Shown in pieces: positions 33,275 through 34,514 of a DNA stretch of 64,000 bases. The DNA comes from Escherichia coli (GTDB lineage: Bacteria; Pseudomonadota; Gammaproteobacteria; Enterobacterales; Enterobacteriaceae). The stretch lies in NCBI RefSeq assembly GCF_051903065.1, contig NZ_CP178438.1, one strand, 5' to 3'. The notes beneath the pieces were generated by a model, which worked only from the letters and a program-made list of their open reading frames with translations, had not been told where the DNA came from and did not search any database. How positions within the stretch are numbered: the first letter of the stretch is position 1; each line of letters begins with the position of its first letter. A program made the translations under genes and the position numbers.

Positions 33275-33750
33275 CTTAGATGTCCGGTATTAAGTAAGTT
33301 GCACACACAATAATTTCGTCTTCAATTAAGATCTGCTTAACTAAAGAACGCTCGCTATTATTCAGATAATTCAAAATGAGCGTGGCTGTGATGATAGGAA
33401 TTATGTTTTTTACGTGAATGAGAATAATCTTAAATGAGGAATAACTCATTGATTGACAATATTTTTATTCAAGAAGTGTCATTGACTGTTAACGCAATGT
33501 TGTAAAGGTAAGATAATCTGATTTATCAATATTATTGTGTGATTTTTATGTGAGCAGAAGATATTCATCAGCAACGATTACATTAGTCATTTTATTTTGC
33601 CGACGGCCTCATTGTCGAAAGATAAGCGTACGACAGTATTATCTGAAAAGAGTGATTTTTTATTCAACTACATTTCAGCGCACTGCGTTTAAAAAATGCC
33701 TCTTTCTTATGCGGGATATCATCATTTCATCATGATGTCTTTGGTGAGCG

Positions 33751-34194
33751 GTGAACACAATACACCTGCGCTGTCTCTTCAGGATGAATCCCCTGGTCTG
33801 GTGCCTGCGGGCTGATGTTGCAGCCGAGCTAAGGTCACTTAGACGCTACTATCATTTATCCAATGGCATGGAATCGAAATCAGTCGATACCCGCAGTATA
33901 TATCGTGAACTGGGTGCAACGCTGAGTTACAACATGCGTCTGGGGAACGGTATGGAAGTTGAGCCGTGGCTGAAGGCGGCTGTGCGCAAAGAATTTGTCG
34001 ATGATAACCGGGTGAAAGTGAATAATGACGGTAATTTCGTCAATGATTTGTCGGGCAGACGTGGAATATACCAGGCAGGTATTAAAGCCTCATTCAGCAG
34101 TACGTTAAGCGGGCATCTCGGGGTGGGGTATAGCAACGGTGCCGATGTGGAATCCCCGTGGAACGCGGTGGCTGGTGTGAACTGGTCGTTCTGA
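33751..34194 (+). pseudogene. ycgI: Orphan autotransporter beta-domain fragment
   Basis: Frame encodes only the last ~100 aa of an autotransporter barrel (ends ...AVAGVNWSF, terminal aromatic) with no signal peptide or passenger upstream; paralogous to the ycgH C-terminus. Confidence 0.7.
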
Positions 34195-34514
34195 CCATCA
34201 ACGATTAAACTGCGCTTCGGCGCAGTTTTCGTTTACAGGGGGGCTAAAAGGGAAAATTCTGGGGCAAAAAAAGCCCGCCAGTTACGGCGGGAAACCTCAT
34301 CCTATGGGAGAACAATGAATAATGAAATTGCGGGGTTATCATCTCCCAGTATATCCATGCTAACAATAAGGTTATTTACTCAACCAGGCATAAACATTTT
34401 GTTTTGTGCGTGGGAACAGCCTTAAGGTGTAAAGGGGGAGGTGGAAATAGCAATGAGGAGTATCAGCAAGAATACTCGCCGCTTTACCACAACGTGGATG
34501 AGAGGGATGAAAAA

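Follow-up and report, generated by a model that had tools for sequence, protein, structure and literature searches.

The analysed stretch of DNA (64,000 nucleotides; hereafter the window) is a part of the Escherichia coli chromosome with the gene order pdeG-ymgF-ycgH-ymgD-ymgG-ymgI-ymgJ-remnant-minE-minD-minC, where the remnant is the subject of this analysis. Over 33250-34260, the window is 100% identical to strain 23CRST027. The features recognized around the remnant, and the basis for each, are as follows.

33276-33449, minus strand: ymgI, a small ORF, the left neighbour of the block paralogous to the ypjA locus (annotation of 23CRST027 and MG1655)
33496-33850, plus strand: retained regulatory or leader DNA that preceded the lost gene, containing ymgJ and a 39-codon ORF (paralogy to the region upstream of ypjA)
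33550-33735, plus strand: ymgJ, 61 codons, inside the retained upstream region (annotation of the identical 23CRST027 and of MG1655, b4594)
33696-33815, plus strand: 39-codon ORF, called 'hypothetical protein' or 'ATPase' by PGAP (annotation)
33751-33849, plus strand: 33 codons, from a GTG start, that happen to lengthen the open frame at its 5' end (ORF list; homology begins at 33850/33851)
33850-33851, no strand: deletion junction (blastn breakpoints and base-by-base comparison with strain PapRG-06-5)
33850-34194, plus strand: autotransporter remnant, 114 codons and a stop (PF03797, TIGR01414, 97% nucleotide identity to the ypjA 3' end, annotation)
34207-34234, plus strand: hairpin and T-tract, the intrinsic terminator of the lost gene, retained (RNA fold, direct reading)
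34274-34291, minus strand: terminator-like hairpin and T-run downstream of minE (terminator scan)
34515-34542, minus strand: second terminator-like site, nearer to minE (terminator scan)

The remnant is an ordinary and known element, namely, the already annotated K-12 pseudogene ycgI (b4521). In MG1655, ycgI occupies the same place between ymgJ and minE (1223564-1223907, corresponding to 33851-34194 of the window) and has the same deletion junction; the K-12 allele is ~2% divergent and frameshifted by an extra 1-bp deletion (344 bp), whereas the window allele is in frame. In strain 23CRST027, the RefSeq/PGAP annotation of 33850-34194 reads 'autotransporter outer membrane beta-barrel domain-containing protein', incomplete and missing the N-terminus. 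The literature mentions ycgI as a pseudogene (PMC6206680; PMC7383365), and the mentions found of ycgI, ymgJ, and ehaD/ypjA were passing ones only.

Domain content of the remnant and adjacent elements

The ORF at 33751-34194 (+) comprises 147 codons, and its homology to autotransporters starts at 33850/33851 rather than at the GTG start. It matched the Pfam profile PF03797 at positions 152-254 of 255 (E-value 1.6e-11) with a score of 44.9 bits, above the curated Pfam cutoff of 26 bits for this family. The 114-residue core (33850-34191) matched the NCBIfam profile TIGR01414 at positions 319-432 of 432 (E-value 1.8e-23), and the same core aligns with ~113 residues at the C-terminal end of the Vag8 and BrkA translocators, whose structures have been solved. 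According to these profile positions, ~40% of a type Va barrel domain is left, all of it from the C-terminal end, and the profile and chain coordinates indicate approximately the last five of the twelve barrel strands. The remnant ends in ...AVAGVNWSF, identically to YpjA and the full-length alleles described below, and thus has the aromatic C-terminal residue and the beta-signal of the class; motifs of this type are the beta-signal for BAM. The remaining part of the barrel is taken to establish descent from a type Va autotransporter and would be too small to form a barrel. An earlier reading of the window, made from the sequence only, had placed an autotransporter beta-domain fragment ending in AVAGVNWSF here, and the similarity to translocator domains found in the two profiles and the two structures bears this out. 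It was also right in that the C-terminal end alone is encoded; its estimate of ~100 residues is corrected to 114.

No signal peptide was detected in the window ORF, and the DNA preceding 33850 aligns with non-coding DNA upstream of the full-length alleles. The first 33 of the 147 codons are therefore a read-through of the leader or upstream region of the lost gene and not a signal peptide. None of the AIDA, Pertactin, or AC_1 domains matched the window ORF in the Pfam scan. No second copy of the fragment was found by blastn within the 64-kb window. The GC content was 37% for 33300-33850, 50% in the fragment, and 49% in the whole window; the sequence-only reading had thus correctly described the upstream DNA as AT-rich and devoid of a signal peptide and a passenger, but this DNA also holds ymgI, ymgJ, and the 39-codon ORF.

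No Pfam match was obtained for ymgI, and the ORF of ymgJ has no intact counterpart in the paralogous region upstream of ypjA. The 39-codon ORF (33696-33815, +) lies just upstream of the start of the lost gene, overlaps the end of ymgJ, and also had no Pfam match. It was considered as a conserved leader peptide and rejected, because all five nucleotide differences from its paralog at the ypjA locus are non-synonymous; it is unlikely to be a true protein-coding gene. Another short ORF of 40 codons (34244-34366, −) is situated between the remnant and minE and was left unannotated by RefSeq in the strains inspected.

The hairpin at 34207-34234 begins 13 nt past the remnant stop and reads CTGCGC-TTCG-GCGCAG followed by TTTTCGTTT. 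Its predicted folding energy is −19.3 kcal/mol (z = −5.3), and none of 200 shuffled sequences was as stable; the consensus terminator scan did not list it. The terminator-like element at 34274-34291 (−) probably ends transcription of the convergent minCDE operon. No RNA family was matched when 33000-34800 was scanned against Rfam with E-values up to 1. The promoter scan returned weak consensus matches only, six against a shuffled expectation of 3.5 ± 2; since this number is not clearly above the background, the matches were not used as evidence of expression.

Relationship to ypjA/ehaD, full-length alleles, and the deletion

The last 355 bp of K-12 ypjA are 97.2% identical in nucleotide sequence to window 33850-34204, and 108 of the 114 remnant residues are identical to YpjA. 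The upstream region (33496-33850) is 89% identical to positions 790-1145 of the K-12 ypjA locus, a stretch of 356 bp that ends 30 bp before the ypjA start. Both surviving parts are thus of the YpjA/EhaD type, and from these two matches, the window contains both ends of a ypjA-type gene block, joined at 33850. When the longer remnant of the O157:H7 strain Xuzhou21 was used as a megablast query, the 3' end of ypjA/ehaD was matched at 96-98% in thousands of genomes. The close paralog of the remnant is therefore ypjA/ehaD of the CP4-57 prophage and not ycgH. The ypjA site belongs to the CP4-57 prophage-like island and adjoins yfjZ-ypjF. YpjA/EhaD is an AIDA-I-type adhesin that shares the layout of AIDA repeats, Pertactin, a Pro-rich linker, and PF03797 with the full-length genes at the minE locus; it differs from the window copy in its chromosomal site (a prophage island next to the yfjZ-ypjF toxin-antitoxin pair) and in being intact (1526 aa), whereas 90% of the gene is missing from the window.

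To find genes of this type next to minE, a composite probe consisting of the 3 kb at the 3' end of K-12 ypjA and the minE flank of the window was searched in 5426 complete E. coli genomes. At least 417 of them (~8%) had a contiguous probe coverage of at least 80%, that is, at least 2.2 kb of a ypjA-like gene running into the minE flank; O55:H7 and sorbitol-fermenting O157 strains were among them. Three full-length loci were inspected. In PapRG-06-5, an intact ycgH (888 codons) is followed by ymgD, ymgG, ymgI, ymgJ, the 39-codon ORF, a 'ypjA' of 1110 aa, and minE. Strain 405 has the same layout, including an intact ycgH, with an autotransporter gene of 1134 aa directly before minE. In WL297, a 1558-aa 'AIDA repeat-containing protein' is encoded at the minE locus, and ycgH is absent. 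The gene was intact and encoded a PF03797 barrel in all three, and ycgH was intact in two of the three. The PapRG-06-5 and WL297 proteins, which were scanned, contain 6-10 AIDA repeats, Pertactin, a Pro-rich linker, and a complete PF03797 domain (residues 849-1088 in PapRG-06-5). PGAP gives the name ypjA to the full-length genes beside minE, whose identity to K-12 ypjA is 86-98%.

The comparison of three full-length loci, including PapRG-06-5 (locus positions 10696-14422), with K-12 ypjA (790-5765) revealed mosaic identity in minE-locus genes: ~86% in the DNA preceding the genes and in their 5' third, but 94-98% in the 3' ~2.4 kb. The WL297 gene differed from the mosaic alleles by a uniform identity of ~90%. 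The mosaic pattern suggests that the chromosomal genes and the prophage copy have exchanged sequence by recombination or gene conversion.

The deletion was delimited against PapRG-06-5. Window 33000-33850 aligns to positions 10200-11050 of that locus at 98.6%, and window 33850-34700 aligns to 14068-14917 at 97.2%, leaving a single gap with a 1-bp overlap. The missing part is 3017 bp long (locus bases 11051-14067); it starts 30 bp before the ATG and takes in codons 1-996, so that the N-terminus of the parent protein (MNRTSRYYFHRSVLSLLISAMIYAPPGMTAF...) falls inside it. Microhomology at the junction is limited to one common T, which argues for illegitimate recombination and not for a repeat-mediated event. 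The 3017 bp were measured against the shortest intact allele; as intact alleles are 3.3-4.7 kb long, between 3.0 and 4.4 kb may originally have been lost.

Genomes collinear with the window over 33250-34260 numbered 4518 of 5426 (~83%). The junction was identical in all six deletion alleles that were read (K-12, ATCC 25922, S65EC, WWCOL-236, E166, and HB42); across this 1-kb region, their divergence from the window reaches ~5%. The left flank of strain 405 is 99.3% identical to that of the window, yet a full-length gene is present there. This indicates a polymorphism shuffled by recombination and makes one deletion followed by vertical descent too simple an account; on these comparisons, the alleles have been moved around by recombination between strains and probably also between the two paralogous loci.

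The sharing of the deletion by other Escherichia species was addressed with a 21-mer spanning the junction, which was searched against 100,044 species-representative genomes. An exact match was needed, and the E. coli representative itself was unmatched, so the scan is uninformative on outgroups; the three hits were contigs of metagenome-assembled genomes (MAGs). The match in a Nitrosomonas MAG was rejected as a chance match. The contig of the 'Clostridiales' MAG UMGS1323 (8880-9539) combines a 63%-GC sequence bearing ftsH, glgB, glgC, glgD, and glgA with 619 bp from E. coli, and the position of the fusion exactly at the minE terminator hairpin indicates an assembly chimera or contamination. 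In the third, a 1.7-kb contig of a 'Collinsella' MAG, the junction-bearing fragment is joined to CP4-57-type sequence located downstream of ypjA.

Origin, decay, and possible roles of the remnant

Taken together, 33850-34194 is very probably the dead 3' remnant (ycgI) of a YpjA/EhaD-type gene that has been mostly deleted and is now drifting neutrally. The parent would have been a chromosomal adhesin gene of the AIDA-I type (type Va), of the YpjA/EhaD kind, with ymgJ and minE on either side. A single deletion by illegitimate recombination, in an ancestor of most E. coli lineages, would have taken away the signal peptide, the passenger with AIDA repeats and pertactin, the Pro-rich linker, and approximately the first seven barrel strands, together with the final 30 bp of the leader. 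The upstream region (33496-33850), the 114 C-terminal codons, and the terminator hairpin would be what was left over. With no signal peptide and under half a barrel, neither export nor barrel folding would be expected and, hence, no autotransporter function.

The remnant has the properties of a pseudogene, being cut short at the 5' end in comparison with the intact orthologs found at this locus and carrying further disabling mutations in other lineages. Among the seven remnant alleles aligned, three were frameshifted, and three different 1-bp frameshifts were found in them independently: K-12 has one, ATCC 25922 and S65EC have another in common, and S65EC has the third in addition. In HB42, an IS3 is inserted in the 3' end of the remnant, and in strain 99-3165, an IS1-bounded deletion reaches from ymgC into it. 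The frameshifts and IS truncations together point to neutral decay.

The O157:H7 copy (Xuzhou21 and F8092B) represents the same gene with the same 3' end beside minE and is 98% identical to the window over the shared part. It differs in that ~250 codons are kept, the truncation is independent, an island with ompT and IS elements has taken the place of the 5' side (in Xuzhou21, the break is marked by IS1203), and the neighbouring DNA lacks ymgD, ymgG, ymgI, and ymgJ. The O157:H7 truncation is thus a separate route to the inactivation of the same gene. The typical O157:H7 island upstream of this longer remnant contains ompT, an alpha/beta hydrolase gene, and ISEc8 (IS66 family), to which IS1203 is added in Xuzhou21. 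Several independent inactivations have therefore struck one site, comprising the deletion, the frameshifts, and the IS1, IS3, and IS1203 events.

As a counterpoint, the 114 codons of the window itself are in frame and continuous with the 147-codon ORF starting at GTG, and the upstream region is intact; the fragment could still be transcribed from this region and even translated in the open frame. The presence of the remnant in ~83% of genomes might likewise be read as selection, but the neutral persistence of 0.35 kb beside an essential operon could explain it equally well. A retained function is nevertheless considered quite unlikely, whether as a terminator or insulator between the promoter region on the ymgJ side and minCDE, as a small protein, or as a homology platform for regaining the adhesin. 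The wide distribution, the intact upstream region and terminator hairpin, and the intact frame would fit such a function, and the mosaic identity (86% versus 94-98%) would fit a platform, since it suggests that ypjA and the genes at minE have exchanged sequence. The ycgI-minCDE region was also enriched among filamentation-inducing clones in an expression-library screen, for which the authors regarded linkage to minC as the simplest explanation (PMC6206680). These points are set against the tolerance of three different frameshifts among three of the seven aligned alleles and of IS disruptions, as well as against the missing signal peptide and the lack of an Rfam match.

It is also conceivable, although unlikely, that the deletion and the full-length alleles form a long-lived presence/absence polymorphism shuffled by recombination, in which the ~355-bp arms would serve as a landing pad for regaining or losing the adhesin from ypjA or from other strains. 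If so, a surface adhesin beside minCDE would in effect be switched on or off at the level of the population.

Also quite unlikely is a partial copy of ypjA that was pasted beside minE from a CP4-57-like island by abortive recombination or transposition, without a resident gene ever having existed there. The location of ypjA in a mobile prophage-like island, the high identity to it, and the sharp ends of the paralogous block at 33496 and 34204 would be compatible with this origin, as would the 1.7-kb MAG contig linking the junction-bearing fragment with CP4-57-type downstream sequence; this contig, however, is short and probably chimeric, like that of UMGS1323. Against a pasted copy, full-length alleles fill exactly the same block boundaries at minE in at least 417 genomes, and both block ends are kept (355 bp upstream and 355 bp at the 3' end) with one internal junction, which is the signature of an internal deletion.

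The resident YpjA/EhaD-type gene, lost by deletion, is a textbook case of decay among the variable adhesin genes of E. coli and, as such, matters little, the remnant being already annotated. The present comparison corrects the origin of the fragment to a YpjA/EhaD-type parent in place of a ycgH duplicate, defines the exact deletion, and places a surviving intact gene in a minority of strains. The two nearly identical 3' ends per genome are relevant to typing of 'ehaD/ypjA' by short-read mapping.

Comparison with ycgH

The ycgH gene ends at 32535, 1.3 kb upstream of the fragment and on the same strand, as the sequence-only reading had noted. That reading had further proposed that the fragment is paralogous to the ycgH C-terminus and is left over from a past tandem pair of autotransporter genes, one of which is now nearly deleted. 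YcgH does resemble the remnant in its PF03797 barrel, strand, and proximity, and is a pseudogene both in K-12 and in this window. The protein alignment that the reading had proposed as a check, performed between the fragment and the ORF of the window encoding the C-terminal 661 aa of YcgH, gave no pairwise similarity (BLASTP E-value 1.2). The full-length parent and intact YcgH shared 25% identity over 312 aa (E-value 4e-08), and the aligned part lay outside the surviving region. Their passengers differ, with AIDA repeats and Pertactin in the parent and, in YcgH, an AC_1 autochaperone without AIDA repeats. The NCBIfam subgroups differ as well, the parent being BafA/Ag43-like, whereas the best neighbours of YcgH are MisL, ECSE_1600, and AIDA-I. 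The two accordingly share family-level homology only, as type Va members that happen to be neighbours.

The leftover of a tandem ycgH duplicate, with the ycgH C-terminus as its nearest relative, is thus refuted by the pairwise comparisons and virtually untenable: that both are PF03797 autotransporters in one orientation 1.3 kb apart does not outweigh the E-value of 1.2, the 25% identity of the parent, the unlike passengers and subgroups, the 97% nucleotide identity of the fragment to ypjA, and the three opposite-strand genes lying between the two loci. What stands of the proposed pair is that a gene in the same orientation has lost 3017 bp; the two were not in tandem. The synteny comparison suggested by the same reading agreed with a lost neighbour, as the full-length gene was found before minE together with an intact ycgH in PapRG-06-5 and strain 405.

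In the window, ycgH itself is a pseudogene (28806-32535) split by a 1057-bp IS903B-type element at 29395-30451, which has a transposase gene at 29427-30395 and terminal inverted repeats. The element is flanked by a 9-bp target duplication, GTTCAAGTC, at 29386-29394 and 30452-30460. The annotation of 23CRST027 has the same arrangement, with ycgH split by an IS903B-family transposase. With ycgH split by this element and the ypjA-type gene deleted, both autotransporter genes of the locus are dead in this strain.
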